From assembly GCA_001662655.1 (NCBI GenBank), contig KV460225.1: 64,000 nt of DNA; one strand, written 5' to 3'. Under the pieces are notes generated by a model. It saw nothing but the letters and a program-made list of their open reading frames with translations, was not told the origin of the DNA and ran no database searches. How positions within the stretch are numbered: position 1 is the stretch's first letter; each line of letters opens with the position of its first letter. The position numbers were made by a program, and so were the translations under genes. The stretch is from Pseudogymnoascus verrucosus. Taxonomy: Eukaryota. Shown here in pieces: positions 7,315 through 52,860 of this stretch.

Positions 7315-7609
7315 TGTGGATTGAGGGGGGGGGTTTGAGGTTTCTCACATTTGCAAAAAATATAAATAGTTGGTGACCTTAGCGTCGTCGTTCCTTGTAA
7401 ATGAAGATCTTGGAAACAAGCGCGCGTTTTTCGACGAGTCGGCTGGGCTGCCATGATTGGTTCACGTTCCCCCTTGATAATATGGGCGAGACGACAGGCC
7501 AAGTTTAGAAAAAATGCAGATTACGGAATTACAAAAACGTAGAAAGCAAAATAAAAACTTGGAAATGTCGTTGAATTTTATAAAATTCAACAAAAAAAAT
7601 ATATATAAC

Positions 7610-7614
7610 AAAAA
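7610..7614 (-). terminator. Pol III T-run terminator of the 5S gene
   Basis: TTTTT directly follows the 5S 3' end (...GTTGTATGT); a further T8 run lies at 7592-7599. Confidence 0.75.
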
Positions 7615-7714
7615 ACATACAACAGTGGGTATTCGCTGGTGGTCACCCACCTAACTACTAATCCACCGACCTCAAGCTTGTGTATGGCAGAGCGGACGGG
7701 ATGCCCAATTCTCT
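7615..7714 (-). rRNA. 5S rRNA gene, 3' fragment (nt 20-119), interrupted by insertion
   Basis: Minus strand reads AGAGAATTGGGCATCCCGTCCGCTCTGCCATACACAAGCTTGAGGTCGGTGGATTAGTAGTTAGGTGGGTGACCACCAGCGAATACCCACTGTTGTATGT, a typical filamentous-ascomycete 5S sequence. Confidence 0.95.
7700..7714 (+). repeat. Left direct repeat GATGCCCAATTCTCT (5S nt 20-34)
   Basis: Identical to 12204-12218; the bases either side mismatch. Confidence 0.95.
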
Positions 7715-8019
7715 GTGAGCTGCCATCGCTTTTGCGCCAAGACCACCACCAAAACCGTTCCCTGTTGTCAGCCTTCCGCTCCTGACCTGACGCCATTGCT
7801 GCTTTTACCTGCACGCACTGCCTCACGACCCGCACTTCTCTAATTATAGCAGCCATTGCATCGTCCTGAGAGCGCTTACGAAATGCAAAATCGTTGGCAG
7901 CCTACAAACATTTGGCAAACACCTTCCAGCTCAACACATCTCTTAGTAAAAGGCAGCCTCCAACACCTTTTCAGTTCCGAAGAGTCGTCTACACTACTAT
8001 ATAGCGATTTAACTGCAGA

Positions 8020-9836
8020 ATGCGTCTTGTTCATACTACAACTCTCAAACTCCACGAATTCCCACCCAAAGGTATCCCACCTTACGCTATCCTTTCTCAC
8101 ACATGGGGCTGCGACGAAGTGACTTTCCAGGACATGATGAATTCTTGCCCCCCTTCTACGAAACTAGGCTATAACAAAATTATCTGTTGCTCTGAGCAAG
8201 CGAGAGGGGCTGGACTAGAATATGTATGGATCGATACTTGTTGTATTGACAAGAAGAGCAGCGTCGAGTTGTCCGAAGCGATCAACTCAATGTTTCAGTG
8301 GTATCGACAAGCGGCTGTCTGTTACGTTTACCTGAATGATATGCACATAACAACCCCGGCATTTGAAGTGTATTCACAGCTACTGGGAAGTAGGTGGTTT
8401 AAAAGGGGATGGACACTCCAGGAGCTTATTGCCTCGGATCTAAGAGTGGTCTTCAGTTCAACGTGGGTTAAGATCGGGTTATCGTCAAAAGAACGACTTG
8501 AATTACCCAAATTTCGCATAAAAGAGAGCTTTTATGCTCAAATCCCCGATATTACCCAGCACCTATGTCATATAACAGGAATTCCTATCGACATACTCCA
8601 GGGCGATAGTTTGGAACAAACTAGCATTGCCCAAAGAATGTCTTGGGCCGCATATAGGGAGACAACCAGAGTAGAGGATGAGGCTTACTGCCTTCTAGGC
8701 ATCTTCGATGTAAATATGCCGTTGCTCTACGGAGAAGGAAGGAGGGCGTTCCTAAGATTACAAGAGGAGATCCTGAAAAGTAGTGATGATCAGTCGATTC
8801 TTGCACACATATCGCCTACTCTAGAAGCTCCGGTTGGATTGCTAGCACAGTCACCCGCGTTTTTTGCGCTGGCTGGGGATATCGGAAAGTCCGATAGAAG
8901 CTGGACAACTTCGGAAGATGCTGTAGCTCTGACAAAACAAGGGCTGAAGATTTATTCAACAATTTGTCCCCTTTCTAGCGGCTCTGCGTGCCTTGCTATT
9001 CTGGACTGTACAGTTGGTAGATCATCAGTCGCGAGGCCTGCAATCTATTTAGAGCGCCAGGAAGGTTCCAAAGACTGCTACCAGCGCTATAGTCACCGAT
9101 TCTTACTAATATTATCTCCTCAACGCCCCGGGTTAGGGTGTCACATGATATGGCGACCAACGATGCTTGATATATCAATTAATGCGTTGCTTGGTAAGTT
9201 GTCTGCATTTCAAAATCATTTTTCCTTTAGTAAGACTAATGGTTATACCTAGAGCAAATAAACTTCGATCAGGCATACAAAAAGACGATACATATTCCAT
9301 TTAAGTGTGCGGATAACACTTTAATCAGATTACCAACAGTTCGTGTAGAAGAAATCGATAAACGCCTGGTACTTCTTTCTGTGGAACCGAAAAATAGTTG
9401 GGATCACGATACTAAAACGGTTCAATTGTCTTCTGGTGTTAGGACTTCTGAGGGTACCCAGGCTGTATTTCACATTCAAGACAAAGGATCTGGCCTTAAT
9501 TTAGATCTTTTGGTCGGATTCGACCCTAAAGAATTTGATGAGGAAAAATCTCGTATTTGGGCTGCATGGTGTCTCTTGATTCCATTAGGAGCTGACAGAA
9601 TTTCTCACAGACAGCCAAAATCTACAAATACGCTGTCTGAGGCACGAAAGAATAACATATGCAGTGATAGTCTTAGTCTTAGACAGACGAAGGCACAGCA
9701 GAGTGTTGTCGACTTAGGTTGCAGTTTTCAATATCTAGTCCAAGCTTCTATTGAAGCGATTAAGTTTCTTGGACGTCAAGAGGTTATTTTGCAGGTGCGG
9801 CTATTATCAAAACCCAAACCTCAAGAGACTTGTTAA
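8020..9836 (+). CDS. HET-domain (heterokaryon incompatibility) protein, ~585 aa, no NACHT/WD40
   Basis: PYAILSHTWG, YVWIDTCCIDKKSSVELSEAINSMFQWY, SRWFKRGWTLQEL and SIAQRMSWAAYRETTRVEDEAYCLLGIFDVNMPLLYGEG. Intron 9194-9252 (GTAAGT..CTAAT..TAG) joins in frame to the 9381-9836 ORF. Confidence 0.92.
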
Positions 9837-10095
9837 AGGAAGAAAGTCAGGCAAAGGCGAAATTTATATTTAAACGAAATATTAATTGATTAACAACCAA
9901 AGATAGAGTTCGATAATTAAGATTTCTACGGGCCTAGTTGATAATTATTTGTTCATTGAAATGTCTACCAATAGTGAAATCCCTGCCTTCTCGAACGTTT
10001 CGTCATTTGGATATAACGCAAAATCGTACAATGTGAAAATTGAAAGGAGAATGTTAGACTTGAAAGATTTCAATAGACAATTGTTGATACGGCCA

Positions 10096-11834
10096 TTACT
10101 CTTTGCATGTTTCGCGTGGCCTCGTCAACCCTATCTTGTGAAACTCGAATTGATGATCCACATACCCAGCTTCATCTTGAAACGCAGGTTTACCAGTACA
10201 TTCGGCTGCTTCACATACAAGGTTGCGCTTACGATGTAGTAGATCAGGGTGCCTAGCAAACAAATGAAGCATAGTTTCCATGAAATTTCCTGTTGGCTCT
10301 GAGCAATATGAACAATTTTCACCGTCTTGACTAAGAAGCCTGTAGATAATGGTGAGTTGTAATTTATACGAATGGTGAGGCATAAACGTACGTATCGTAA
10401 GGTAGTTCCCACACCGTTCCTGGCTCGAAATGGGATTTTAAAATCTCAGTCATTTTGCTACTCGACCTGTCTATATGTTAATGGCAACGAAATAGAGTCT
10501 TTTGATAATATCAAAACTTACAGCGACAATTGGCATTGTTCGTCGTCTTTCCCTTGCCAAGGCAAAAGGCATTGGCACTCGTCTAATTTAGGCATCCTTT
10601 TAGAGACTTTCTCATCTAGGTCATATATACTTCTTGCTATTGTAAACGCTGATGGGCGCAAACAAGGATCAGGTTGGACCATAGCCTGACAAGAAGGAAT
10701 GAATTGTTGGAGAAATGCTGACTGCAAGCACTCCTGATGTTCGGTGAGCTGCTCGATAGCCCTAGTGAAATTAGGGGCTTGTAGCCGTTGGGATACCCCG
10801 TTGAGACTCTGTCTGAGAGTGTCCAAAGATAAGCCCGCTGCAACTGTCATTATCTCAAGATATACACATCCGAGAGAGAATACATCTGTTTTGACACTTG
10901 AAATTTGCCCTAAAATGATTTCAGGAGCCAGGTAGATATAAGGTTTGACCTCTCCTCCATCCGAGGTTTCTTGTACTAGCATACTTGACTCTTTAAAGTA
11001 GTTTGAAATGGCGAATTCTGTGAAGAAAACATCACCATTCTTGACTCCAATACTTGCAGACCTGATATCCTTGTGTAATAGACCTTTCGCGTGGATATAG
11101 CTCAGCCCACTTGCAAGGCAGCCGAGCCATTTTTGCGCAATAGGAAGTGGCTCGAAAGGGGTCGGTTTTGTGCTATTAACTCGCTCAAGGAAGACCTGAA
11201 GTGTGCAATTTGCGATCGGGCTCATTATAATTCCATAGCGTAGGTTTTGAAGGTTAAAACTCTCCTCTTCATATGTCATAATTGCTGTTATAACATGGGG
11301 ATGATGAAGGGATTTTGCGGAATCAAGGCGCTCAAGTTCGGCAGATGATGTGCCCCTGGTTGGTTGACGGGCTAAGGTGAATACCTTTCGCGCGTAACTT
11401 CTGCCTGGAAGAATCTTTCCACCAGATGGTTCCACCTTGTCGACTATTGAGAAATTTCCCAACCCCAGATCTTCCATGTGATTAAACCGAACACGTCCAC
11501 ACGGAAAGAATTCATGAGTACAGACCACTGCTAATGTCTGATCATTGACTTTTTGGGCGTACGACTCCTCTGTATGCTGAGGGAATACAAGTTTTAGGCC
11601 GAATCTTTCCCCCTCACTTTCGTTCAGATATTGATAAGTTCGATGATCTTTAATATCGTGGGGAGCCTCTTTAGAGGTGGCTAAAGTGCTAGAGCTAGCC
11701 TGATCGTCAGACGTGATCTGCGTTGTACGTGGGCGTTTACGGGAACCCCGCTCTGGCATATCGCTCTGGTGATGCAGTTTAGGAGGTTGAGAGGACGGCT
11801 TGCAAGCGCTTGAATGTGCATTATCATGGTCCAT
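10096..11834 (-). CDS. Protein-kinase-fold protein (probable pseudokinase) with two C-terminal C2H2 zinc fingers, ~543 aa
   Basis: LGLGNFSIV, YARK, HKDIRSAS, EFA, YLAPE, DVFSLG, RPSA. Predicted exons 11834-10522, 10466-10392 and 10339-10096 (55- and 52-nt GT-AG introns) give an open frame ending in CSYC-x12-HLFARH and CEAAEC-x14-HQFEFH. Confidence 0.8.
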
Positions 11835-12203
11835 GTCTGTAGCAAAGCGGTAAATAAAGCAAATAAAGCTCGTGGTTGAGACTCGATGTTGAGGCAAGGC
11901 TTTAGGCAGCCACGGATCATGTAGTGGGCATTTAACCTTATATATCAGGCACACATTTAGATACATATCTATCCCTTTTACGCCTGCATATTGTGCTACA
12001 GTACTTGTATGTATTGCAAAGCGCAAGCTTATACATCTTCCTGTTTTGCGACAGCCGTGTACGTTTGGCCGTTTTGCGTAGTAATGTTGTTAGATAAAAG
12101 CAGCATTGGCCTTAGAACAACTCACGCGATACTGCAACTCATTATCATGTTTCCATCAACAGAAACCTCAAAGTCGTCGCATTCAGCGACCAGCGCCGAC
12201 AGA

Positions 12204-12237
12204 GATGCCCAATTCTCTTGAGTCTATGGTCATATGT
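12204..12237 (-). rRNA. 5S rRNA gene, 5' fragment (nt 1-34); includes right direct repeat 12204-12218
   Basis: Minus strand ACATATGACCATAGACTCAAGAGAATTGGGCATC. It pairs with the 3' fragment in helix I (ACAUAUGAC/GUUGUAUGU) and helix II (GACUCAAG/CUUGAGGUC, one bulge). TATA-like TATTTAG at -30 to -24. Confidence 0.92.
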
Positions 12238-12311
12238 GATTGTTATGTGCATGTCGGGAACTAAATACTAATGTTCTGTGTGTGGAAGTAGATGGTTTGA
12301 GGGCGGCGGTA

Positions 12312-12375
12312 ACATCCCCCTTAAATCGAGATAAAAAACGGCTTGTCCCCCCTCCCCTTGCTTCACCCTCGCGCG
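12312..12375 (-). repeat. Degenerate duplicate of the last 17 codons and stop of the XDH gene
   Basis: ~63-bp near-copy of 12539-12601. Confidence 0.85.
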
Positions 12376-12547
12376 TTGAATTGTATAAAATACATAACTA
12401 AAACACCACAATAGGTTAAGATTTTGCACTTAAACATACACACACATATAATTCTCACCCCCGAAACAAATCAAATCCAAAATTCATAATCCATAAAATT
12501 TTATATACAAAAAACCCCCCTCAACGATTCCACCATTTACATCCCTC

Positions 12548-15500
12548 TTAAATCGAGATAAAGAACGGCTTATCCCCCTCCCCTTGCTTGACCCTCGCGC
12601 GCTGCACAATAGGATCCACACATGCGTTCCTGATCCGCTCCGTTGTCGCGGGGCTGTCAAGGTATAACATGCCATCTTCCATCTCTGCCGATGCTTCTTG
12701 TCCTTGTGGTTGTAATGCATCGGCGGCAGGAACGTCCTCTGGGGTGGTGGTCGTCGTATCATCCGAAACGCTACTTGGCTCACTAGTCACCGGCGACTCA
12801 TCGCTCTCTCTGCTCGTGGTGTCGCCATTGCTTGCCTCACCATTCGTCGCCTCTCCATTCTCGGCATGACCGTTAGTCGCTTCACCATTCGTCGTCTCCC
12901 CAACCTCCCCATTCCCCAACCCCTTTGCCACAAACCTCCTCGCCTCAACCCCCCACTGCCTCCTCCCCGCCCGAATCGCATCCCTAATCGCAAAGAACAC
13001 CACACTGCCCAAAAACAGCGGCGGCTCCCCAACCCCCCTACTCCTCCCAATAGTCCTCAACTCCTTCCACTCCACCCCCTTCAGCAAACTAACATTAAAC
13101 GTCTGCGGCACGTCCCTAAAGCCCGGGATCTTGTAATTCCCCGGCCCGCGGGTGGCGAGCTGCCCTGCCATGGGGCCGCCGCCGAACCACAGCGACTCTT
13201 CCATCGTGAACAAGCCGACACCTTGGACGAAGGCTCCCTCAACCTGCCCGTAATCAACAGAGGGATTAATACTACGTCCAACATCCATCAGCACATCTGC
13301 ACGAATACACGTCCACGAGCCGGTAAGCGTATCGACCTCAACCTCAGCAGCAGCAACACCCTGCGTGAAGTAGAAGAACATCTTCCCCTCGTTCTTGCCC
13401 CACGTATACCCTATCTCAGGAGTACGGTAGTACCCCTGCGCGGACAGGTTGACGCGGGAGAAGTACGCGGCATGTGCGAGCTGAGCCATAGTGGCCTCGG
13501 GACCGAGCTGGGTCTTGAAAGGGGCGAGACGCTCGTTGAGCTGCGCACAGGCGTTGTAGATGGCGTAGCCGTTGAGATCGCTGGATGCGCTGGCGGCTGT
13601 GGAGGAGGTGTTGGCGACGGTGTTGGTGCCGGTTTCCGAGATATGCACGGAATCCAAGGGGACGCCGAGGGTCTCAGCAGCGACCATGCACATCTTGGTG
13701 TGCAGCCCCTGACCCATCTCAGTACCACCGTGGGCAAGCAGCACGGAACCATCGTGGTAGATGTGCACAAGCGCACCAGCCTGGTTAAGGAACAGCGCGG
13801 TGAAGGAGATACCGAACTTAGTCGGCACGATAGCAAGACCACGCTTACGCCACTTGTGAGTTTTGTTGAACTCATCGACAGCCAGACGGCGCTCCTCGTA
13901 CTTGGAGTTCTTGCGAACCTGGTCATACATAAGGGGTACATGCCAGTCCTGCAGCGCCTGGTTGAAGTGCGTGATCTCCATAGGCTTGTACATGTTGATC
14001 TCCCGCAGCCTCTCAGCTGGGATACCGAGCCTGTCTGCTGCCTCTTCAATGTACGTCTCTGCAACGAAAAGACCCTGGGGTCCACCAAAGCCACGGAAAG
14101 CGGAGTTGGACATAGTGTTAGTGCGCGCGATACGGCCACGTACGTGTACATTCGGGATGGCATAGCAACCATCAATATGGGAGAGAGCGCGTTCACAGAC
14201 AGCTCCACTGAGATCCTGCGTCCAGCCACCGTTGCAGACAACCTCCGCGTCGAGGGCCTGAAGCTTGCCATCGCTGTTGATGGCGATCTTCCACTTCGTG
14301 AGGAAGGGATGGCGCTGGCCACTGGTCATCATGTCTTCGTCGCGGTTAAGCATGCAGCGCACAGGCCGTCCCGTCTTCTTCGCAGCGAGCGCCATGATAG
14401 AACTCAGTTGCACCGAACGGGTTTCCTTGCCCCCAAAGCCGCCACCAAGACGCTTGACTCGGCAGACGACCTTGTTGTTGGCGACATTGCAGACCTGTGC
14501 GACATATGCTTGCCTGTTCTCGTTAGTACTGAGATATATCTCATAAAAATGGATTACTTACGTCTCTGTCGGGTTCTGCGTACAAGCAAAAACCTCCATC
14601 TCGCCATCTTCCGGCTTCGGTATAGCGACACAGGCATTAGTCTCAAGGTAGAAATGCTCCTGACCTCCCATCCTCGTCGTGCCAGAGATGACATGATCCG
14701 CCTCCGCAAACGCCTTCTCCGTGTCCCCAGTCTTGATGAACCTGAACTGCTCGAAGTAGCTCTCCTTCTCAATAGCCTCTTCGATAGTATAGATAGCAGG
14801 CAGCTCTTCATACTGTATCTTGACTGCCCTCGCACCAGCAGCAGCCTCGTTTGCCGTACTGGCGAGGATAACACCAATAGGCTGACCACAGGTAAAGACC
14901 TCATTTACAGCGAAGAACACCTCATCTCTCACCGGTGCACCCCACCAGTTCGCCTCGGGGCTGGGCATATCCGTATGATCCAGATAGTCCACCACACCAG
15001 GCAACTCCAAAGCCGCCGACGTATCAACAGATATGAGTTTCGCCCGCGCCTTCGTCGAAAGGACCAGACACCCGTACAACTCATTCCTCTGGACCGGGAT
15101 ATCATCAGTATACTGCGCCTGCCCCGTACACTGCTTCAGCGCAGCAACATGCGGCTGCGCGCGACCCATAATCATCTTCTCATACGCAGCCGTAGCATCG
15201 TGATCCTGCTCACCACGCGAAATCTCACGCTCAATCTCACCAACGGCCTCAAGATCCGCACCATCGTTGCCGAGCTTGATGAGCACCTCGTGGTAGAAGC
15301 GGTAGAAGAAGCTCATTGCGAGGGTCTTGCGGTAGGTCGCCATTCCACCTGGAACGCCGAACTTGAGATCAAAGTCCTGCTCGAGGGCGCCCATGACGCC
15401 TTCAAGCGTTGCCGGATCTGTCCACTTCTTGCCAATGAGGAAAGTGTCCGCCTTCTTCGCTGAGATGGTGAGAGGCGCCATTCCGCCGTAGACGAGGTTG

Positions 15501-17620: not shown

Positions 17621-18619
17621 TCAGTCCCCAGTCTCACGCATTTTGTTCGTAACCTTTTCCAGCACCATACGGCCGAGGCTGACGTGAGCTGTCTGTTCCC
17701 CCCAAGGGATATCTCGCTGCTCTTCATCCCTGAACGTTGTATTCGCGAACCATGCATCTCGGAGATATTCTTCCCGCTCCTGCGGATCCTTGCCGATATC
17801 TGCCACTTTCCCCGCATACTTAATAGTCATAGCGTTGAGGAGCAGACGACACACTCGGCCGTTGCCATCCTCGAAGGGATGGATACACACAAACGCCGTG
17901 GAAAGCCGGCAAGCAAAGTCGATAGCGTTGATTTCCCCGGTCTTCTCCGCTGTCTTTATTCGCTCGTTGTGTTCCCCAACGAGGTTTCTCATAAAGAGCT
18001 TCACGGATTTGCCGCGGACGAATTTCGAGGAGAAGAGCGGGACTTGCTTCCTCTGGGGGACAGGTCGGTTCGGTTTTAGCCGCTTGCAGTCTTGGACTCG
18101 TTTTTTGTATTCTTCGTCTGTTTCAAGGCGGAGTCCATGGCTTGCTCCCTCGTCCGACTCTCTGTAGGTGCCTCCTGACGCTTGGTGTTCCGAAAAGCGC
18201 ATGAGGATCCGATGTGTCTCCTTTATGATATCTTCGTCGAGAGGGACATCTTGTAGCACGATCGTGTCAAAGAGGTGCTTTGCAGCTAGTGCATGCTGGA
18301 CAATCTCGTGTCTTGAGCGCATGACAGATTGTAAGTCCGTTGCCCGACCGCTTGAAGAAAGGTGATCAAGCTCGAGTGTGTATTCGTCAGATCCCTCGTC
18401 AATGTCTTCGATGTTTGGTATCTTGCCGCTGAAAACTTGGCGACAAAACCGATCTGTAACTCCGATGGCCCCTCCTACCACCTCGATTGCATTGCTCCCA
18501 AATATTACATCGCTGAGTCTGGAGATAATAGTGTCTGACAGTTTCCTGGGTGCTGTTGGGCCGCTTTCTTGGCTCAGTTTCTGGCAGGGTCGTGTCTGCC
18601 TGTTCGCTGCCGATGCCAT
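17621..18619 (-). CDS. Fic/Doc-domain protein (putative AMPylase)
   Basis: Complete Fic motif HPFEDGNGRVCR, upstream I.E.H..LM...GG.YR segment; intronless 332 aa. Confidence 0.9.
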   Translation of the reverse strand: MASAANRQTRPCQKLSQESGPTAPRKLSDTIISRLSDVIFGSNAIEVVGGAIGVTDRFCRQVFSGKIPNIEDIDEGSDEYTLELDHLSSSGRATDLQSVMRSRHEIVQHALAAKHLFDTIVLQDVPLDEDIIKETHRILMRFSEHQASGGTYRESDEGASHGLRLETDEEYKKRVQDCKRLKPNRPVPQRKQVPLFSSKFVRGKSVKLFMRNLVGEHNERIKTAEKTGEINAIDFACRLSTAFVCIHPFEDGNGRVCRLLLNAMTIKYAGKVADIGKDPQEREEYLRDAWFANTTFRDEEQRDIPWGEQTAHVSLGRMVLEKVTNKMRETGD

Positions 18620-20866
18620 CTTTTCAGCTTTACAGTAACTGTTTATAAAACCGGGAATGTATCCTGTTGGTGTTACATGGAAAGATGGGTGACTGTAAAA
18701 CTTATAATAATCTCTGGTTATTGTGAGTTTATTGGAAGTTCAGTAAACGCTAGTAACTGTTCATTCGACAAGAAGTACGAAATAAGGTACTAATAATCCC
18801 CTGATTTTTAACTTACGATAAGCTAAATTCCATACTATAATTCATCCCATACTAAATTACACACTAAATATATAAAAATATAAAACTGGAAGGAGCGAGT
18901 TGTATATATATACTATGACCTATACTATGACCATTATGAAGCAAGGGAAGGAGCCATCCTAGAGTCAATGCACCTGCCAAGTCTCTCATCAATTACAACG
19001 CCTTGGCCAAACTTGGTCGCTAGCGTAAATGTTTTCGAGATCGATTCCCCTCCCGAGCCTACTGTCGGAGAGTAACTCTTCTCATCGCTTTGAGTCTTAC
19101 TTACCGGGAGAACTTACCGGGAGAACTTACCGGGAGATCATCGTCTGCTGGGATCATAGCATCTACACGTGATTTGTCGTATTTGAGATACTCGTATCAC
19201 GTGATTCACCGCCCCACAAATCGGGCATCCATCCCGCATCCCACACCTGTCCCACTTCCACCACCCACTTTTGTGCCCACATAACACGCCTGCGATTGTC
19301 AGCAATTCTGCCACTACGCACATGCTAAATGCAGACACACTCGTGGTCCTAGCCGTGGATGCTATCTTATCTTCACAGATAGCTAGAGAGTAGGGAAGAT
19401 AGAGTCCGTATGCGTATATACGCATGCAGTGGGTAGTATTTATATAGTATTTATTCTCTTCCGGTTAAGATGCTCCCGGATTACTCTGTAGAAATGAAGA
19501 TGAAGATATACTCTGTATATATTCTATGGTGCAATCGGCGTGAAAAAATACGATTGTGGCAAACTGAAACTGGACGCACGCGACCACTATCCACTTGCGG
19601 TGCTCGTGGGGTGCTGGTGGGGTGCTGGTTGCGCCGTAGCTAAGGTTAGGACGGTTAGTTCCGGTGAGCAAGGTAAGGTTAGTACGGGTAAGTAAAGTCT
19701 TCCATGTATAGTAGTATAGTAGTGAAAAGCCGATGTGAAAAGCCAATGTTTTGTTGGAACTACTGTAAACTATAGTAGTATGCTGTAGTATGTTGTAGTA
19801 TGGTTATAGTACGGAGTAGTTGACTATAGTAGCATAGCAGTTACGCACAGGGCGCGCGTTTATCTGCCCACGTTGTTGCATACGGCACTCTCGTAGGGCA
19901 ATAGATCGGCCTCGGCCACAGACTGCATGTCAGTCCTGCCTTACAATGGTACTAGTAGCGAGTCTAGCAGGGAATCTAGTAGGGAATCTAGTAGGGAATC
20001 TAGTAGATTCAGTCTAGTAGTGAGTCTAGTAGTACGCTACAGCAGTGACGCCTTACTTATGTGGAGTTATGGAGACAACAGGCAGGAACAGGGAGGGAAA
20101 ACGGGAGACAATATGGAGACGGTTTACGAGTCCGACGCTACGCTACTGCCATACTCTACTACGGAGTACACTCTGTCTCCCCGACTCTATGTTACCTCCA
20201 TACTCTACTCTACCGATAAGCGGAGGAGGCAGAATGGTTATGCGGGCGGGTGATGGCGATAGTGGCCCGTCCTCCGCCGGAAGAATATGGTGGGCGCCGA
20301 CGGCCAAAAAACGTGACAGGCCGTGCACGTGAATTTACCCAGGGTGTATTTCGTCTTGTGTCGTCATCATGATTCTACAGCACGCTACACCACAGCACAG
20401 CCACCAATATAAACAAATCCGGTCTCTCTACAGTACCTATAGCATCTAAAACACACACATAAAATTAAATCCAGCTATCCAACTACTACCTACCCCTCCT
20501 TGCAAAGCCGAAAATGAAAACATAAAAAACTAAAATCCGATATTGTTCGTTGGGTTGGTTCCTTATCGTCCAACAGCCACGCCGAGATTCTCCCACCCCA
20601 CTACCCAAAACATCTTAGCCTTGTTTGGCGTAGATTAGCCGATCAAGGGTCAAGGGCGCAAGGATCAACTAACAAGGGTCTCCACCCCCAGCCGCCGACG
20701 CAAGTCCTCCACCCGCAGTATCTCTCCCCGACGCCGGCAAACTCCCAATCGAATAACTTCAGCATCCTCTATTTCTCTCTCCTTTTACCTTCTTCTTCCT
20801 CCTCCGTCCTAATTTTACTGCTCGACCACCACCACAACCACTGCTGCTTCTACTACAGCTGCATCA

Positions 20867-36368: not shown

Positions 36369-37476
36369 ATGTCCGAGAGCATCATGACTAGTACGTACCA
36401 GCCTGTAAATCCGGTAGCACCGCGTTACCAACTCACGTCGATGCCACAGTTGGCCGAAGTACGTATTAGGCCGCGTTGAATCACCGAGACGACGTGACTT
36501 GCTCACTGCATACAGGCAATAAGCAAGGAAGACGACTGGACTGGGACCAAGGATGCTGCAGCGCGCAGAAGGGCACAGACTAGGCTTAACACAAGGGCAT
36601 ACCGTTAGTAATTCCCTTTTGTTTAAGTTTGGAGTCAGGAGGCAGGAGATGGGAGATAGGACTAGTCCGATCGAGGTGTATCCCATTCCCGAAACTGATA
36701 GTTAAGTAGGAAAACGCAAAGCCTTGGCTGCAAATAAGACACCGGTTAAATCAGAAGAGCTGGTAGAGTGCTGGGACATTAAGCAGCAATCCTTCTCCGT
36801 CGTCCCAGCATCCCGTATTAAGGAATTATACAATGGCAGAAGTGCCTTGCTGCCGGATAAACAAAGAAAAGCCCAGTTTAACATTGTCTTCCCTCTCTGC
36901 CCAGACCACCTCATTACACTCCTCCAATACAACGCCCTCCGCGCTCTGGCTGTCAACCGCACTCTAATCTCAGGCATCCTTGTTACGCCGCTCGACTGTG
37001 GCGAAGAAATTATCCACGTCATCCCTTACCCCTCCAAGCCCGAACTGCTCCCTTTATCACTTTTGCCCACCGTCCTTCAACAAACGGTGCCGCACGGGGA
37101 CTGGATTGACATGTTCCCGTGTCCCGAGGGGCGAGACCGACTAATTCGAGCCGCCGGCACCTTCGACGAGGACGAGCTCTGGGCCGACTGCATCGGCGGG
37201 CTGTTCGAAGGCTTTCCCGACGACGAGGTCGAGCGACGCGGCATTATTGCGTGGTCGCCGCCTTGGGATATCACCGGGTGGGAGATGTCGGAAGGGTTTA
37301 TGAGGAAATGGGGATGGCTGTTCAAAGGGTTGCCGGGGCCGTTGGCGGCGACGAATCGGTGGCGGATGCAGAGAGGCGAAGAACCGTTTACTCATGATGA
37401 CTGCATGTCACATGCAACCGTGTTACCTTTGTGTTGTCCAGATACTTCTTCGTCATCGGATGAGCTGGGTGTTTAA
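36369..37476 (+). CDS. bZIP-like / DUF3425-type regulator
   Basis: Spliced basic region EDDWTGTKDAAARRRAQTRLNTRAY; C-terminal DHLI.L.QYN, L.PT.LQ..VPH..WID.FP, WE.SEGF..KW and TNRWR..RGE. Confidence 0.8.
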
Positions 37477-37627
37477 GACTTTAGGTAGTATTACTACACT
37501 AGGAATAGTCCACCAGTCCTTTCGGCCCTATATGTGGCACTGAGAGAGTGCAGTAAATGTCCATAATGCGAAGAGCCAGCAAGGAGGCGCTCCAAATTGG
37601 GGTTTTATCAATTGACTAGGCTGTTCT

Positions 37628-37788
37628 ATCTGTTGGTATTTGGGTTCATATGGGTCGTGGCGGTCAGGTTTCTTTCAAGAACCCCTTTATCTGTTTATAA
37701 TTTGGGTCCATATTGGCCGTAGCGGCGAGCTTTCTTTCAAGAACTCTTTTATCTGTTCGTAGTTTGGGTTCGTATTGCTCGTGGCGCT
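37628..37788. repeat. ~61-bp degenerate tandem repeat (~2.6 copies)
   Basis: TATCTGTT....TTTGGGT.C.TAT.G..CGT.GCG recurs at 37628, 37688 and 37750. Confidence 0.7.
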
Positions 37789-38802
37789 GCACCTCGAACA
37801 ATCTTTGGGGCCGTATAGACTGTTCCAAGGTTCCGCGGATTCCCGGCCACAGCCTGTTATAGTTGCCAAACTAGGAATTATACATGTCCTTCAAAAGTAC
37901 TGTGTAGTTTCGCCGAGTAGGAAAAGGCTTATTTATTCGGACACCCCGATGATATTTATGAGTCAGATTATCAACTCGGGGTTATCATCCCCGAAAATAT
38001 CGTCATCCGCTCGGTGTAGCTTGCTGAGCCACCGACCGACCTGTCCCTTATGAAATCAGCATGTTGCTCTTAACCAGTAGAGGGTGATTACTTGCAAGAG
38101 ACCATTTGTTGCAAGTCCAGATTTCGGTTACAGAGTGAAGTGTGACCTACCAGTTAACTATTATGATCAATCTATTTTCTATACACAAAATGCTGGCATA
38201 GACTTATTCTTCGGCCAGGAATATCTGGCGTCAGTTTAGACTCGATTTCAGACAAAGAACTACAGATACTTAACACAACGGTGAAATGATGTCGTGCGAC
38301 CCCCATCTACAGCTCATGCGCCGATAAGGTATTCCACGCGAGTTGAATGCTGCCATCTTCTGACTGAGTTAAACCTAGCGTGAGTGTAACTAGCCATGCA
38401 CCATGCATTGTGACACGGAACGTTGCTCAGCTGAAGGCTCAGCTGAGTATCTATCCTAAGACACTGAGTCTATGTTTCCAGTCCGGATCTCACACGTGGG
38501 GCATAACACCGTTGGAATTCTTCAGCTCGGAAGCGACCGTAAGACATTTTTGCACCTCCTTTCGCCGTTGAACTATGTAAGATCTAGCTTGCAAATATGC
38601 ACATCGTATAAGTTACAAGCTCGAGCTCAGGTCATTGTTGAATCCATTTCAACCCAACTCGTAACCTAGTTGCCTCCCTAGCTGAGATAGTCGTCTTGTC
38701 AGAACTTTGAATTGTCTATGGTAGGACACTGCGCAGTGTCGACTGTGTGCTGTCTGTATAACTATACGGGGCTCCGCCCTCGGTGCGATCCAACGAAACG
38801 CA

Positions 38803-40350
38803 ATGTTGGACTTAGAATCCGACACCCAAGTTGATCAGACGCGTAAGCAGGTATCGTCGCGGTCAAAGCTTCGCGACAGCTGCCATGCCTGTGCCATTTC
38901 CAAGGTTAAATGTCCCAAAGAAAAACCATCATGTTCAAAATGCGAATGCCGTGGCATCACATGCCAGTACTTCTTGGCTAAACGTCCTGGTCGCAGGCGT
39001 GAGAACAACACAGTCAACGGCACAGGGAGCAACACAAGTCGATGCCAGTCCAGCAAAAGTCTTGCAACAAGCTCCAACTCCAGCTCCAGCTCCAATTCCA
39101 ACTCTAACCCCAATACCAAATCCAATACCGACAGCAGCCGGTCTATGGAGTGGGAGGCACCTCTAGATATGCAACCCACTCCCGGAACCGGCTTGCTATC
39201 AAAAGGAGGCACAATAATTCCAACCAATTCGTATGGCACCGATGGCTACCTTATGACACCTTTAAGCCTAAGCGTCCCGGCATCTCCAAGACAAGACAAT
39301 ATGTTTTCAACAAATGCAGCACAATTTTCTGTACCTGGCGAGGTCGGCATGTTCTCTGGTCTAGTAGATTTTGGATCTGAGGTCAACGACATGGATTTCA
39401 TCATGTCGGCCATGGATTCTCCGTTTGACCTGCTTGGAATGGAGTGCGGTGGCATCACTGGTAGCATCACGCAAACACCAAATGATATTGAGTCGCTCCT
39501 CATGCCAACCGAGAGAGTCGATTTTGACCATGCTTCATTGGATACGCCATCCTCACTTGATTTATTGAGCACATCGAGCGCGGCGTCATCAACCGCCTCC
39601 AATATCCATTCGCTGCCGACTGGGATGACGAGTATATCGGATATCATCGAAACCTCACCGTGTGGATGTCTGATGCAAGCACTAGATCTCTTGAAGAAGC
39701 TTTCCACTAGCTCAACCTCTTCCCGCACGGCATTTCCCAGTCTGGATGCCACGGACATGCCAAGAACTGTTAATGCTAGTTCAGCGCAGACTGTCGTCTT
39801 CGAAAATAAGCAAGGCATGGAAGCTGTCAGTAGCAAGCTTGCATGCTCGTCGTGCGTTGACGATGGCTTCTTGCTAACAGTCATCTCCATGATCGTGCTG
39901 AAAATATTAGAACGATATGCCACTGTGGCGCAGGCACAGCCGCGCAAGACTGGAAAAAGCGAGCCGGAAACTGACAATCCAGTGAGGCTATCGATCAGCA
40001 CTACTTCTGGTAGCGATGACTGGATGAGAGCGCCAAATCATGTCCTTAATGGATCGTATGACGACGGAGGAAGCGAGCGCGTGGCCGCTCAGCTTGTTCT
40101 CAGCGAGCTGCATCGCGTGCAGAGGTTAGTGAACCAGCTGTCACCGAAACTCAAAGGGCCAAAGGAGAGAGAAGGTCAAAATATAGCCCCGAAGATGAGG
40201 TACTGGGGCCGTCCTAGGGCTGCAGGAGATGGTGACAGAATGACGTTGACTTCTATCTTGGCTGGCACCTTGGACCAAATGGAGAGGGATGTTCGCAAAA
40301 GCTTGAGTACTCTGTCAGCAGAGATAATCAACGGGCTACGGCAAGTTTAA
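38803..40350 (+). CDS. AflR/MdpE-like Zn2Cys6 cluster regulator
   Basis: KLRDSCHACAISKVKCPKEKPSCSKCECRGITCQY; AflR-type C-terminus AAQLVLSELHRVQRLV. Confidence 0.9.
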   Translation: MLDLESDTQVDQTRKQVSSRSKLRDSCHACAISKVKCPKEKPSCSKCECRGITCQYFLAKRPGRRRENNTVNGTGSNTSRCQSSKSLATSSNSSSSSNSNSNPNTKSNTDSSRSMEWEAPLDMQPTPGTGLLSKGGTIIPTNSYGTDGYLMTPLSLSVPASPRQDNMFSTNAAQFSVPGEVGMFSGLVDFGSEVNDMDFIMSAMDSPFDLLGMECGGITGSITQTPNDIESLLMPTERVDFDHASLDTPSSLDLLSTSSAASSTASNIHSLPTGMTSISDIIETSPCGCLMQALDLLKKLSTSSTSSRTAFPSLDATDMPRTVNASSAQTVVFENKQGMEAVSSKLACSSCVDDGFLLTVISMIVLKILERYATVAQAQPRKTGKSEPETDNPVRLSISTTSGSDDWMRAPNHVLNGSYDDGGSERVAAQLVLSELHRVQRLVNQLSPKLKGPKEREGQNIAPKMRYWGRPRAAGDGDRMTLTSILAGTLDQMERDVRKSLSTLSAEIINGLRQV

Positions 40351-41822
40351 ATTAGTACGTGCCGGACATATGATGGTTATTTGGATTGAAACCCCGTACA
40401 TTCTCCACCTAAGGGGTGAGTCAATAGACAGACTCAAGGTGGAGCTACAGAAACGGGCATAGTATATAGCTTAATAGACATTTGGCATTATAATTCTAAA
40501 CTATAGGTCTACAGCCAAAACTCCCCTATACGCATTCTATCTATCAATATGCTATTCCAAGTTATTATACCCGCCAAACAAATTATATGCCTGAAGTTCA
40601 CGTGGACGTAAGCACGACATACTTCACAGGCATATGATTCCATTTAAGAGGATATGCTCATAATGTGGCTTGGTGGCTTGGCGGGAACTGCCATGGCTCC
40701 AACCCGACCTTCTATAAAATGGAGTGCCATACGAGCATGGCAATCTTACCGCTGGTCACAAGAAACGGGCCAGTAGTAAGTGGTCAGGTGGCTATGTGCT
40801 ATCTGTATTGAGTCTTGACAAGGTAGCATCAGCCAAATGCTTCTGCCATGCCATCGTCGGCGATCACTTCTACATCCGGGATACGACTGTTGAATACGCT
40901 ATATTTGTGGAGCTATACGAGGCGATGGATGAGGTGGGTAAGACACAGTGTTCTAGTTCGTTGGTGGATATTTATTATTCTAGAACGGCCTTCCTTATCA
41001 GTGTACCATTTTAAAGGAGGGTGTCACAGCAGTTGCTGAAATTCAATCGCTGTTGTACAACAGTGGCAAACTTTCGGTATTCAGAGGCACACTCGCACCT
41101 GCTTACGTAGATTACGTGTCTCGTAACAAACTTCCCAGGGATTTTCTTATTTAAAGATAATAAGTATAATTCAATTTGATTCTCACGGTTGAAATCAGCG
41201 TGCTCGGCGCTAATTAGGACATCTAGCAACCCCTTGAAGCTGACGACTACCTCACCGACCCTGACGAATTCCCCAACCCAGCATATCGTCATCCTAGCCC
41301 AAATTAACACAATCCATTCGGACCATCGGAAAACAGATAACTAACATGCTTCAACTCGTGTCAGCAAAATTCTTGCCCCCACCGACTAAATGTTCCTTGT
41401 ACCACGGGCCATGTTTCATACGGTTGAAATCTTCAATACTTTGGAATGCCGCCTAGCTGAAATAGTCAAAGTCTGCAGTATCGGCCATCTGATGATCAAA
41501 TAGTTGGTTCATCAAATTACGAGTGTTGCTTTAATTACCAATCTAAATACTATACTAACTAAAAGGCAAGAGTAGGTGTGCTACTTGGGAAGAAAACAAT
41601 GAGTGGTTGCATGCTAGGAAAAACTCGCTGAACTGGGTCTAAGTCTTTACACCATACTTTACCATAAAGCCCCGAAGGGCAATTAGCACCCAAGCCGCAT
41701 GTAATACGTCAGGAGCCCAGAAGCATTATATGTTAACAATTTTGAACTTACGATATATATGGCGTCAATTCGCGGTAGAAGAAAAGTTCTCGGCTGGTGT
41801 TTTAAACCTCCAATAAAACACC

Positions 41823-42390
41823 ATGCGCACCTAACTTGATACTAAACCATTACCAGTAAGGGTCGACGTGCCAGCCATAGCTGTTATTTTGGGGTCCTTT
41901 CTATCAGGTTATGTCAATCTCCTCTATACGCAATCTGGACCTTGTCTAACTATTAGACTCAGGCGCTATGACGAGCCTTTCGGCATTTGCCGTCCCTGTA
42001 TTTATAGATACTAACACCGAATAATTGCTCCGGCAATGGATTCAGCCCTACCGTTACGGCCACATGTACATACCCACATTTCGTATTGTGACGTTGGGGC
42101 TATGCGTATGCATCCTTAAGCGGAAGAGGCTCGAGCCACAAGCAATGGTACCAATATGGCGTGGCAGCCACATTGTCAATTTCTATGGTGCCATTCACCT
42201 AGCTTGCCGTGGCGGAAACGAATCATACCTTATTCCAGATGGGGTCGAGAAATTTGGCGACAGAGCTAACCTTTGCGAAAGCTCTAGTTTTGAAGTGAGC
42301 GTGGTTGCATGTTATGCAGTCTCTGTTTCCCATATTCGGAGCAATCACAGGCTTCGTCAGCCTTCTGCAGGAAATACGGTAGCAACGTGA
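41823..42390 (+). pseudogene. Anthrone oxygenase (DUF1772, EncC/MdpH-type) pseudogene
   Basis: AVILGSFLSG|AMTSLSAFAVPVFIDT..LLRQW...Y.YGH...MVPFT*L remains recognisable. It has a TAA at 42022, a TAG where W is expected (~42200) and a frameshift near 42100. Confidence 0.75.
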
Positions 42391-43250
42391 CAATTATACC
42401 GTCGAGTCTTCGTATATTCAATAGCCCGTATAGTTAGCATAGTGGCAATTCAGTATGTTTCGTTATCATTTGGGGCCCGTAAATCAATCCACCTCCACTA
42501 GCTCCGACTATCCAAGTGCTGTAAAACTCGCCGGAAGAATCTTACATGTAAACAGAGCAGGTAATCACAACTAATGTGTATATTGGCGTAATATATTCCA
42601 ATACGATAAGACGGATTCGGCGTAAAAAGGCTGACCTGCTGGAACGGGGGATTGGAAGTTGCCGTGGTGGTATTGATTATTGACCCGGCATTACACCGTT
42701 AATTCCCCACTATTTAAAGTGTCACGAAGGCGCCGCTAGCTCCGGGAGATCGTACCGCTAAGCCTTTAAAAAGCCTTCGGTTGTACTGTACTAGTTAAGC
42801 TACGGTAGGGTACTACGCGGTTGAAAGCAATAAGTGGCACGGGTCTTGGCACATTTCTGGTATATTTCTGGCAGTAAACCGTGCCACTTTTTTCTTCACC
42901 CGCGTAGGTACGTACTAGACCTGTTGAAGAACGAAGATGAGACCTTTCTTGTTGTTTGGCGCGATGATCCCCCGTAGACCACAGCCACCGCCACTGCCTT
43001 ATCTAGCTCGGAAGGTAACCCCAGTTGATGGGCGATAAAATATTGGTATGATACGTTATTTAGCCAAGCCGCCAGGTAACAACGGGAAATATCCGTTATT
43101 GTGCGTCCCGGGGCGTTCTGCAACCCCACCGGTCATTCCAGTTTTCCAAGATTCGTACAATTTGAGGGAATGTAGTCCCTATCTCTACCGTGGCCCTCGG
43201 ACGCAGGATTTTGTCTCCTTTGATTTATACAAAACAATTCTAGCTTTATT

Positions 43251-44721
43251 ATGGATAGATTGACGGAACTCAATGGTCATAGCGATCAGCTCGCCCAAGC
43301 TATCAGGAGCCTCGTCGATAGCCGTCGAGGAGCCGATTCTTCTGACCAGCTGGGGCCAAGTGCTGACACTGATGTAGACAGAGATCAATCTTTATTCACA
43401 AGAGCCAAGTCAAATATTCTGGCCAGTATTGCAGCAATCAAGTCCATAGTTGGTGAACCAGCAGACTTCCTCCAGGATTTTTCTCGCCAGGTAAGCGGAA
43501 CTTCTCATCATTTGCTCCCCTGCCCTTTCTATTTTTCTCATCTCAACTTACATAATCCAGATCGAAATCCTTGCTTGTCTTCGGTGGCTAGCGGAATTCC
43601 AAGTTTTTGCGTGCATCCCGTTTGACGAAAGCTTGCCTATCAAGGATTTGGCGGACCTAGTAGGAGTTCCCGAGAGCCAGTTGGTTCGTGTCATCCGTCT
43701 GACTGCCACATGCGGATTTCTGCGGGAACCGATACTAGGCTTTGTGTCCCACAGCCCCCTCTCGGCGCAATTCATATCCAACCAGTCATTAGTTGACGCT
43801 ATGGTGTTTATTGCCGAGTTGGCTACTCCCACAGCATTGCAGATGCCGCAAGCAACGCAGCGATTTGGAGCCTCGTCGAGTGCCACCGAGAGCGCATACA
43901 ACTTAGCTCTCAATACGGTGCGGCCGTTTCATGTGGCTATCCAAGAACGCTCTAAGCTGCGTCGTCAATGGTCAGCTTACCTTTGCCATGCAGCAGGGTT
44001 GCACCAGGAGGAAGAAATCATCGAAGTGTTATCGCGGCTCAACTGGTCTAACCTTGGTAATGCGTGCATAGTCGAGGTAAGCTAAATGTAATCTATTCGT
44101 GTATCGTACCAAACTAACATTGGGCGGCAGGTAGGGGCAAAGTCGACCTCGATGGCAAGCTCTCTTTCCAAAATGTTTCCAAGCTTGCGGTTGGTCGTGC
44201 AAATCGACAATACACAATCTTCTTTGCTAGATCGAGACTACATGTGGCAAAATGCAGTTCTGGCAAGCTCAATCCGGGACAGCTCTAGCTCTGGATCTAG
44301 CCCTTCTCCCACAAACCCTTTTATCACGGTTACCTATCATGCCATGGGCATGCCGCAGTCTGTGACAGATGCTGCCGTTTATATTATTCACGTGCCTGCC
44401 ACATCCTCAGGATTGACGATTAAAGCAGAACTGGATGATTACTTAGGTGTGCTTCGTACCAGCGGGGGCATCATGCTTATCTTGACGACACGACTGCTTC
44501 CCGAGCCAGGCACTCTTCCCAACCCAGAGATCGAGGCCGTGGCGCGCGCACGGGATCTGAGCATGCTCCAACTGGCCAACGAGAGCGAGATGGAGATGTC
44601 CGAGCTTCTGAGTATAATAAAGACGGTGGGGGACAACGCTGGGAAACTCGTTGTCACTAATCACCTTCGCTCAAACAATGGCGTCATCCTAGCTTTAACT
44701 ATCAAGTACCAAGCATATTAA
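43251..44721 (+). CDS. AflJ/MdpA-like coactivator (O-methyltransferase-like fold)
   Basis: ILACLRWLAEFQVFACIP, RLTATCGFLREP, LNWSNLGNACIVEV|GA and ARARDLSMLQLANE; two introns. Confidence 0.85.
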
Positions 44722-45282
44722 TTTCGGGCTATTTGAGTGCATAGTTACTTAGATGGGCATAAAATGACATGGAGCACAGGGAACCGCAGTGGTAGCTTAT
44801 TAAGATTCGTTTTAATTCAAGTGACAATTAATCCAATATGAGAACTACATGCACCTCTAGATCTAACCTGTAGTGCGGGCGGCTGTTATCTTTGAAAACT
44901 ATGCAAATCATCGTAATAATAGAGTAGTTCACTAGGCTAGTTCCCAAGTCCACATTTAACTTAGTTCATCTTAACTAGAAAATAAAAATGGACCGCAAGC
45001 AGTTGTTGCCATTGGTCCACAAACCACTCGAGTGAGTAATCCGCGAGGTGCGCGTTCTCCCCGAAGGCAACGTCCCATTGTCCCATTGTTCCATTGTTCC
45101 GAACTTGCTATAGTTTAGAACCTACTATGGGTTGGTAGGGGCTACGTATTGTGCGAGTGATAATGTGAAGTTAAGTAAAGAGGCTCCATTTAACTCTATT
45201 GCTTCTCGTAATATTATTTTCTATCGATTCTGCCATGCTATAAATTATCATATGAGTGCTTTAGAATATTGATTTCCATGAT

Positions 45283-46352
45283 TTAAACTTGAATAGTTAC
45301 GGCCAGTGGATTTTTCAGAGCCATAAACCGCTGCGTGGTTGTCTCCTCCATTTCCTCCACAGAGAACCACTTCTTCTTGCCTCTCCTCATTTCGAATGCA
45401 ACCTTACAGTCATTCGCTAGTTTCCGTAGCACTTCGTCGATAAATGGCTCCAATGCGAGTATCCTCGTATCTTCGTCAAGCGACTCGCCGTAGATCTCTG
45501 TTACCAAGTCTTTGGTGGTGACGCTCTTCTCGCCGCGGCTACGGACTCTGCCAAGCGCATTCATAACTTGCTTCTCGCGCCGCAACTTGTTATCTAATTC
45601 CCCGGTAATTTTGGCTGGCAAGTCGGTGACTGTGGCGCCATGAGCAGAATAACCGATATGGCAATCCTGGGCAGCCATCTTCTGTAGGCTGGCCATGAAC
45701 GTGCCGAGGTCTTCTACAGCACTGGTACCGTGGCCAAGGATATTGTCACCGGTAAACATTGCCTGCTCCTCTTCTAAGATAAAACACATGTGATCTTCTG
45801 AATGTCCAGGCACATGAATAGCACGGATTGTTGCGCCGTCAACAGAAAATATCTGTCCGTGGGTGATGTTCTGTTGGCTTTGGTCCGGTTCGTTCTTGTA
45901 GATGGAATTCGTGAGATGTGGGTATAGGCGCAGAAGAGCTGGAACTCCGCCGGTATGGTCACCGTGCCAATGGGTCAGCAGAACATATGAGAGGCTGATG
46001 TTCATTGATATAAATGTTGAGTCAATCAGTTTGGCCCATGCTGGCTCGCCCCCACCGGTATCAATGATGAGGCGTCGTTGGCCAGTGCCGACGATGTATG
46101 TGTTTGTCCCTTGATGCGTAAACTGCACGAAAGTATTAGCTGCCAATAATATATTAGAGATAGGGGCCAGATCCGGGGATGACCATTTACCTTTCCAGGG
46201 TTCTGGCCAAGAACGCGAAGCACTCTTGGAGTAAGCTGTTCAATACTCTCGATATGCGGCAGTCGTGCGGTCTGACCTTTAAGATACTCATCAAAGGCAC
46301 AGATGTTCAACGACTTATTGATCTGCCTATATCCGCCCTTGTCGTTCTCCAT
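45283..46352 (-). CDS. Metallo-beta-lactamase-type thioesterase (MdpF/atrochrysone carboxyl-ACP thioesterase-like)
   Basis: RVLGQNPGK|FTHQGTNTY, THWHGDHTGG, PGHSEDH and FTGDNILG; divergent from the PKS. Confidence 0.92.
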
Positions 46353-46550
46353 GGCGAAAGTATAAATGCTTTCTAAGAATATATTATGAATGTGAAAACA
46401 GCTTTAGGTTGACATTAAGAGTGATACATATATTGTTTTCCCTTCATAACGGATCATGACTTCATAAAATGCCAAGAATAGCTCGGAGGCACTAGGGTGC
46501 TTGTTCTGATAAGGGGACAATGGGCATTGTGCCGAGGGGACCTTTCAGGC

Positions 46551-46561
46551 TCGGAGCCCGA
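46551..46561. promoter_or_regulatory. AflR-type binding site TCG-N5-CGA
   Basis: TCGGAGCCCGA in the divergent thioesterase/PKS promoter. Confidence 0.55.
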
Positions 46562-47182
46562 TCATGCATCGCATTATGACTCCATATCAATTTTGAGACG
46601 TAATAGACGTTTCTAGCCCTTCACATGCAAGAAAAATTATAAATATAGCATATCTAGGATTCTCGGACAGTAATTGTCGGGATGAACTACGGGCATTTCT
46701 TTTCGACGGGTGAATAACGGAGTGTGGCTGGTTTGGTTTGACTCGAGGCCAAGCAATAAATGTGGCGAAAGGTAGGTACGTATGAGACCTCATTCAACCA
46801 ATCCGGTAGTAACACCGCCAACAACAACGACGACGACAGCGGCAACAGCAACAGCAACGTTGCCATGTGAGGTAATAATAGCGAAGTGGAGATGACCCGG
46901 TGCGATGTAGGTAGTAAGTAGTTCCTATGTTGGATCAATCGTCCGATCCGGCTGCGGGACTGTGGTGCGGCCTAGAACCACGTTTTATACAAAATGGTTG
47001 GACGCGCTATGGCAGAGCGATTGTTTCGATGTTTTCAGTATTGTCAGTTATATCTGTTATAATAGGCTCTCGATCTCCAGAAGACACTCTTGGTTATATC
47101 TGGACATCGACAGAGTGTCTCCTATTATCCATTTTTACCCCTCTCCTTCCACCCGCCGTTCACTACCCATCCATCCACCTTA

Positions 47183-52692: not shown

Positions 52693-52860
52693 AATGGAGA
52701 GAATGACTATGGAGAAGATGGGATAACGACGCATAGTGTGTTTTTTTTATTGCGGTTTTTGTAAATTTTAATAAGGCCAGACTCTGCAATAAAGTTCAAT
52801 TCAGCATAGTTCTAAACATCTACTCTTCTATTCATGTTTATCCAGTCTCGTCACCGGACT

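Follow-up and report, generated by a model that had tools for sequence, protein, structure and literature searches.

How a 4.5-kb segment came to lie inside a 5S rRNA gene of Pseudogymnoascus verrucosus, and whether its two ends can be understood as the recombination site of a tyrosine recombinase, are the questions raised by this locus. Within the window, i.e., the whole 64,000-nt stretch of DNA analysed, a minus-strand 5S rRNA gene is interrupted at nt 20–34 by the insert, and a normal fungal 5S sequence is regained when 7715–12218 is deleted in silico. The split gene is the sole 5S match in the window. It was detected by Rfam at an E-value threshold and stays below the gathering threshold; with Rfam at the gathering threshold and with ARAGORN, no matches were obtained over the window. 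The insert is bounded by a 15-bp direct repeat, GATGCCCAATTCTCT, which is perfect and occurs just twice in the window, also when as many as two mismatches are tolerated (the coordinates of all features are collected in the table below). The composition of the insert is foreign to its surroundings, with a GC content of 0.438 compared to 0.505 and 0.553 in the flanks, and a GC3 of 0.42–0.45 in its genes compared to 0.65–0.67 in the neighbouring gene for xanthine dehydrogenase (XDH). The insert is free of a RIP signature (TpA/ApT 0.84). The split 5S copy carries C at 7670, where T is present in the 5S of all four sequencing runs discussed below (13–30 contigs per run), and A at 12232, where the loose-end consensus has G. 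The disrupted copy is either decaying or a variant 5S, and on account of these two deviations from the consensus the insertion may be old and no longer active.

Features of the interrupted 5S rRNA gene and its insert, in positions of the 64,000-nt window
Feature	Position	Strand	Basis
5S rRNA gene, 3' part (about nt 20–120, including the left repeat copy)	7614..7714	-	Rfam 5S_rRNA, 38 bits, E 2.3e-05
Left repeat copy GATGCCCAATTCTCT	7700..7714	+	corresponds to 5S nt 34–20
Left terminal arm TCTCTGT-N9-TCGCT...GCG	7710..7736	+	direct reading; chance test
Insert, 4,489 bp	7715..12203	+	bounded by the repeat copies; composition
Left subterminal motif GCCATTGCTGCTTTTACCT	7792..7810	+	inverted-repeat search; shuffling
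HET-domain gene, 585 aa	8020..9833	+	Pfam HET, E 1.1e-13
Parts of the HET gene: exon, intron (GTAAGT...CTAAT...TAG), exon	8020-9193, 9194-9252, 9253-9833	+	intron read directly
Kinase-like gene, 438 aa from the first ATG	10521..11834	-	Pfam Pkinase, E 5.5e-20
Right subterminal motif GCCAATGCTGCTTTTATCT	12092..12110	-	inverted-repeat search; shuffling
Right terminal arm TCTCTGT-N9-TCGCTGAATGCG	12178..12205	-	direct reading; homologous to the L002 end
Right repeat copy, 15 bp	12204..12218	+	repeat search of the window
5S rRNA gene, 5' part (nt 1–34)	12204..12237	-	read directly; matches the intact 5S copies of all four runs

The sequence-only reading of this locus had drawn attention to imperfect inverted arms at the two ends of the insert. 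On the plus strand, the left arm is TCTCTGTGAGCTGCCATCGCTTTTGCG, and the reverse complement of the right end is TCTCTGTCGGCGCTGGTCGCTGAATGCG. The arms agree at 14 of their first 21 positions, as 7 + 2 + 5, and both begin within the 15-bp repeat (5 nt into the left copy and 2 nt into the right one); direct reading thus bore out the arms as they had been quoted. The accompanying proposal, that on an excised circle the arms would stand symmetrically about a single core, holds as far as the geometry is concerned. A circle with one repeat copy would have the junction ACAGAGA-TGCCCAAT-TCTCTGT, which is a perfect 7-nt inverted pair about an asymmetric 8-nt spacer (7-8-7). Whether the arms are better than shuffled sequence has a divided answer. 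In a test that left the repeat unchanged and scored the best among 256 registers, with 5000 trials per null, a match of at least 14/21 was reached in 26 of the 5000 trials with random window segments and in 7 of the 5000 shuffles of the real ends (P ~0.001–0.005), for an arm length of 21 nt that is a post hoc choice. The ungapped local score of the arms, however, is 7, which is ordinary (P 0.28 and 0.17). Due to the post hoc length and the ordinary local score, the terminal arms taken alone are suggestive, not compelling.

Stronger support than that of the terminal arms comes from a 19-nt subterminal motif, GCCAWTGCTGCTTTTAYCT, whose two copies are inverted relative to each other and lie 77 and 93 nt in from the ends. 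No shuffle out of 1000 attained the local score of this pair, 28, and among about 1000 random pairs from the window the share that did was 0.002. Terminal inverted repeats, which Starships frequently but not always have, are present in the form of the imperfect 14/21 arms and the subterminal motif. Within the window, both the arm motif and the subterminal motif were found at the two ends only, which is no independent test, since both were defined from those ends. The hexamer CTGTTG is also common to both ends, 47 nt inside the left and 41 nt inside the right one. The boundaries of the insert, its repeat, its 5S position and orientation, and the inverted motifs are established. It is also worth noting that 7720–7733 holds a shortened direct copy (GCCAT-C-GCTTTT) of the subterminal GCCATTGCTGCTTTT at 7792–7806, so the left end may carry two binding sites of the same sense, about 72 nt apart.

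The insert consists of two convergent genes, a HET-domain gene on the plus strand and a kinase-like gene on the minus strand. Exon 1 of the HET gene is 100% identical to a 585-aa Pseudogymnoascus verrucosus database protein, and the next best match is at 73%. Aligned to CDK2, the kinase-like protein carries HKD..S instead of HRD..N and EFA instead of DFG, and its product is on that account probably an atypical kinase or a pseudokinase. Its best database relatives are 64%, 45%, and 43% identical; considering that the neighbouring HET gene has a 100% match, the kinase gene may be unannotated. The insert has 55 ORFs of 35 aa or more; HET and Pkinase are the sole Pfam domains in them below E 0.02, and no recombinase, transposase, reverse transcriptase, or endonuclease was found in them at Pfam E-values up to 1. 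The window contains 65 ORFs of 150 aa or longer; the 30 of these that were scanned are ordinary fungal genes, none of them a DUF3435 or other recombinase. Elsewhere in the window, 36700–53500 holds a secondary-metabolite cluster with a non-reducing PKS (SAT-KS-AT-ACP), an N-acetyltransferase, a DUF3425 protein, an AflR-like Zn2Cys6 regulator, and a metallo-beta-lactamase-type thioesterase, and a Fic-domain ORF lies at 17621–18739 on the minus strand. The insert has no DUF3435 captain as the first 5' gene, and with 4,489 bp and two genes it is no giant element; by definition, it is not a Starship. It is not a Crypton either, as no recombinase domain is present in any frame of the insert.

The target site nevertheless invites comparison with Starships. 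Voyager of Macrophomina phaseolina is always found in 5S rDNA, 20 bp from the 5' start, with the repeat GCCCTGTATTCT (PMC9156397). It has an approximate 24-nt TIR and cargo genes, is polymorphic among isolates, and measures 74–124 kb, with a DUF3435 captain that starts 394 bp inside the 5' repeat (PMC9156397). The insert has the same position and the same fixed orientation: its repeat, which begins at 5S nt 20, overlaps GCCCTGTATTCT at homologous positions on the same strand. Unlike Voyager, the insert is 4.5 kb long and has a HET gene at the captain position and no captain. The comparison with other 5S-inserted Starship ends covers one string, the Voyager TIR ccgctccccccgaa, which lies 5 nt in from the repeat and shares no motif or spacing with the insert arms. 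On that one string, TCTCTGT-N9-TCGCT would be family-specific and no general mark of 5S-inserted elements.

Other Starships extend this comparison. Of the curated Starship insertion sites, 23% are in 5S rDNA, at no fewer than five distinct 5S positions (PMC11162782). Starships that target 5S have the longest repeats (6–16 bp) and a strand-specific orientation, and they include the families Enterprise, Arwing, and Voyager, Osiris of Aspergillus fumigatus, and laspus2_s07456 (PMC11162782; bioRxiv 10.1101/2024.06.28.601215). The perfect 15-bp repeat studied here, 5S nt 20–34, lies inside that range. It also overlaps, on the same strand, the repeat cggacgggatgcccagt of laspus2_s07456, a predicted 65-kb Starship with a DUF3435 captain (PMC11162782). 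The repeats of the insert, Voyager, and laspus2_s07456 share GCCCnnT only, and this stretch falls within the 8-nt spacer of the 7-8-7 junction. The published size range of Starships is 15–511 kb (PMC11162782). Each of the other 5S-targeting Starships in these sources is defined by its captain and has a length of 15 kb or more, neither of which applies to the insert. The starfish pipeline begins with recombinase genes and removes predictions below 15 kb (PMC11162782), so an element such as the insert would go unreported. No example of a natural captain-less or non-autonomous Starship was found in the literature searched, as far as its accessible parts go. Papers that treat non-autonomous elements together with Starships concern ToxTA, a Tc1/mariner passenger, which has no bearing on the insert. 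The nearest experimental parallel is mini-Hephaestus, whose own captain is frameshifted and whose excision was restored when a captain was provided in trans (Urquhart et al., 2023, PMC10104507). Movement by a captain in trans is also what we propose for the insert, but mini-Hephaestus, unlike the insert, was engineered, contains 3.8-kb and 1.9-kb flanks, and belongs to another family, with the target TTAC(N7)A.

A relative of the right end was found in a metagenome scan queried with the subterminal motif. The scan returned 88 loci, one of which (L002) is related to the insert end; the other 87 have no further similarity and are regarded as chance matches. In L002, the host genes for V-ATPase H and an aminomethyltransferase are followed by 5S nt 1–34 and then by the element end, the sequence being ...GGGCATC and then TCTACTGGAGGCAATCGCTGAATGAGAC...CTGTTG...GGCCAATGCTGCTTTTACCT, with the same 5S junction nucleotide as in the window insert. 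With the 5S part excluded, this end is collinear with the right end of the insert over about 130 nt and scores 60, compared to 16.0 +/- 2.2 for the null, and none of 1000 shuffles reaches that score. L002 retains TCT, TCGCTGAATG, and CTGTTG. Since the locus was retrieved by the subterminal motif, the presence of the motif there is by construction, but the junction nucleotide, TCT, and the TCGCTGAATG block with its spacing are independent of the retrieval. L002 reads TCTCTAC-N9-TCGCT, which means that TCTCT-N11-TCGCT is kept and GT is replaced by AC. The sequence-only reading had named conservation of TCTCTGT-N9-TCGCT in 5S-inserted elements as a check, and the outcome is divided: the motif is partly preserved in L002, where GT is lost, and it is unrecognisable in the Voyager TIR string.

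Beyond its end, the L002 element is unrelated to the insert. It is longer than 8.1 kb (L002 7908–16019), and its sole domain match is a HET ORF, 26% identical over 87 aa to that of the insert. No recombinase or transposase was found in these 8.1 kb, and neither the opposite element end nor the 5S 3' part was found in the 16-kb L002 locus. The L002 element is AT-rich and RIP-like, with TpA/ApT of 1.25–1.47 compared to 0.58 in the host part of the locus. Hairpin-rich repeats occupy L002 8850–9361; the matches to miRNA and snoRNA models obtained there are far below the gathering scores and represent these hairpin repeats.

Contigs of four out of eight listed sequencing runs were aligned to the window; the four runs belong to four studies, including that of the probable source. 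In the run X2, an 18.8-kb contig matches the host flank on each side (192 differences over 1,899 nt and 231 over 2,033 nt; about 89–90% identical) and contains 264 nt only in place of window 7399–12467; the element is therefore absent from the orthologous locus of X2. A 2,545-nt contig of the same run matches 9703–12218 with 20 differences in 2,516 nt (99.2%) and ends in the 5S repeat, with an unmatched 29-nt tail at 9703. A 152-nt contig spans 7700–7811, the match of one left-end contig stops after 7811, and several distinct short contigs lie across 12014–12231, with seven contigs at position 12148. There is zero cover over 7908–9702, and although missing cover is itself no evidence, the X2 data contain hints that the element of this relative carries different cargo. 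Contig depth in X2 is 417–442 at the left end and 663–1456 at the right end, compared to 127–155 for single-copy contigs; as depth is not copy number, weight was put on the number of distinct contigs.

In the run X3, 7687–11558 lies on one contig, where 3,872 nt contain 167 differences and 47 gaps (about 95–96% identity); the order is 5S flank, left end, HET gene, and a portion of the kinase gene. Flank pieces of X3 are about 13–15% different from the window, and a contig of higher depth joins 7326 to 12546. Element pieces are present in two soil metagenome runs of other studies, with about 2–8% difference. Element DNA is 95–99% identical across organisms whose flanks differ by 10–15%. Intact 5S copies that run past 7714 with the sequence of 12219 onward were found in all four runs, and one soil-run contig presents an empty site, spanning from 7699 to 12204 with 15 letters that fit either side. 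Clean empty sites were seen in other 5S copies only. The orthologous loci without the element (X2 and the major organism of X3; joints 7531 to 12468 and 7326 to 12546) also lack its surroundings and possibly the 5S gene, and the 5S unit itself may be a newcomer at the window locus. There is a single defined locus at which the 4.5-kb form is seen, and the joints listed for the run contigs include no circle junction. It is established that an end is conserved beside unrelated cargo, that the element is absent from an orthologous locus, and that its similarity across organisms exceeds that of the flanks. As a separate observation, the block skipped in the orthologous loci of the two relatives, 7327–12545 or 7532–12467, is bracketed by G-run/C-run inverted repeats (7321–7352 and 12496–12524) and by an 80% direct repeat (7569–7598 and 12374–12403), and a 227-bp tandem duplication (12312–12378 and 12539–12604) follows it.

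The reading that we favour, and consider reasonably likely, is that the insert is a captain-less element of Starship type, integrated by tyrosine-recombinase site-specific recombination and mobilised in trans. Core sites of tyrosine recombinases such as the lambda att core, loxP, and FRT consist of two inverted half-sites around a 6–8-bp overlap region, and the repeat that results from integration is the identity common to attP and attB. The insert junction resembles such sites, with putative half-sites and a putative overlap. In bacteria, integrase-less elements flanked by att sites are moved by the enzyme of a relative, and integration into a conserved RNA gene is also known there. It is proposed that the arms are the cis-acting ends of a compact, captain-less mobile element of Starship type, which would enter a dispersed 5S rRNA gene by conservative site-specific recombination. 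The element would circularise, and the 7-8-7 junction would be attP-like, with two inverted half-sites and an 8-bp overlap. Its attB-like partner would be 5S nt 13–34, on the plus strand GACGGGA-TGCCCAAT-TCTCTTG. The 15-bp “duplication” would then be the identity shared by both partners, and no target site duplication from a staggered cut. Candidates for additional recombinase or accessory binding sites are the TCGCT block and the subterminal motif. Because the element encodes only the HET protein and the atypical kinase, the tyrosine recombinase would have to come in trans, and the DUF3435 captain would be supplied by a full-size relative with the same ends. We infer the assignment of half-sites and overlap from the sequence of the junction, and we also infer which class of recombinase acts, that a circle forms, where the strands are exchanged, and that mobilisation takes place in trans; Urquhart et al. 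treat a circular intermediate as a hypothesis that is still undemonstrated (PMC10104507). That the ends form a tyrosine-recombinase att site, as suggested from the sequence at the outset, is partly supported by the geometry, the 5S target, the overlap of the repeat with those of Starships, and the L002 end, whereas the insert has no recombinase of its own. That the element works as a Starship derivative is our reading of these data.

The alternative that competes best accepts the arms as real Starship ends but assumes that the insert is an immobile relic, i.e., a full-size 5S-targeting Starship that lost its captain and most of its cargo by internal deletion. It would account for the missing captain, for a length far below the published range of 15–511 kb (PMC11162782), for the changes in the split 5S relative to the 5S consensus of the relatives, and for the 4.5-kb form being seen at one defined locus only. 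However, both cargo genes are intact and the intron is spliceable. The layout of left end, HET gene, and kinase gene recurs on one X3 contig at about 95–96% identity, with pieces in the two soil runs, so the compact form is not a private deletion of this genome. The ends are, in addition, present on several distinct contigs in a relative. For these reasons, a relic appears unlikely, although it deserves to be kept in view.

If the arms were instead the TIRs of a non-autonomous DDE-type transposon with a preference for the 5S site, the 15-bp repeat would be a true duplication made by a staggered cut. A direct repeat that flanks terminal and subterminal inverted repeats is indeed the classical layout of cut-and-paste elements, and a recombinase is unseen under either reading. 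To our knowledge, the duplications of the known eukaryotic DDE superfamilies are about 2–11 bp long, all shorter than the 15 bp observed. The arms enter the repeat instead of abutting it, and neither the insert nor the 8.1-kb stretch of the L002 element contains a transposase domain or remnant. Published tyrosine-recombinase Starships agree with the insert in site, strand, and length of the repeat, and a DDE-type origin is improbable. Still less can be said for spread without any dedicated machinery, in which an old 5S insertion would have been copied by ectopic gene conversion or homologous recombination and the arms would be largely a matter of chance. The 5S gene is highly repeated (depth in the thousands in the 5S bins) and offers 34 + 100 bp of flanking homology, and the local score of the arms is insignificant. 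It leaves unexplained, however, the significant subterminal inverted motif, the conserved end of about 130 nt beside unrelated cargo in L002, and the element identity of 99.2% against a flank difference of 10–11%, which makes it quite improbable. Finally, a retrotransposed, target-primed insertion of non-LTR type with a 15-bp target duplication is hardly credible: non-LTR elements do have variable, longish target duplications and do target rDNA, but the ends of the insert are inverted repeats and neither carries a poly(A) or simple-repeat tail, no reverse transcriptase or endonuclease domain or ORF is present in the insert, and the HET gene keeps its intron.

Returning to the captain-less Starship-type element moved in trans, a more specific proposal can be put forward tentatively. 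It is possible that the insert is a natural non-autonomous “mini-Starship,” for which about 100 bp of the left end and about 190 bp of the right end suffice for a Voyager-type captain acting in trans. In this proposal, the 4.5-kb form with its HET (cell-death domain) and pseudokinase genes would be a selfish cassette for allorecognition or addiction that passes horizontally between Pseudogymnoascus-like soil fungi. Were it true, the 7-8-7 junction with the subterminal sites would be the first compact, sequence-defined att site of a eukaryotic cargo-mobilising tyrosine recombinase. Because Starship surveys start from the captain and discard whatever is below 15 kb (PMC11162782), small captain-less derivatives are invisible to them. 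With a natural element of 4.5 kb whose ends are defined, the sequence that a Starship recombinase needs in cis would shrink from kilobases to about 100–200 bp, the place of strand exchange in the 5S target would be suggested, and excision and integration assays would have a convenient substrate. As the element is 95–99% identical in organisms whose flanking genes differ by 10–15%, two-gene cassettes may also travel by the Starship route.
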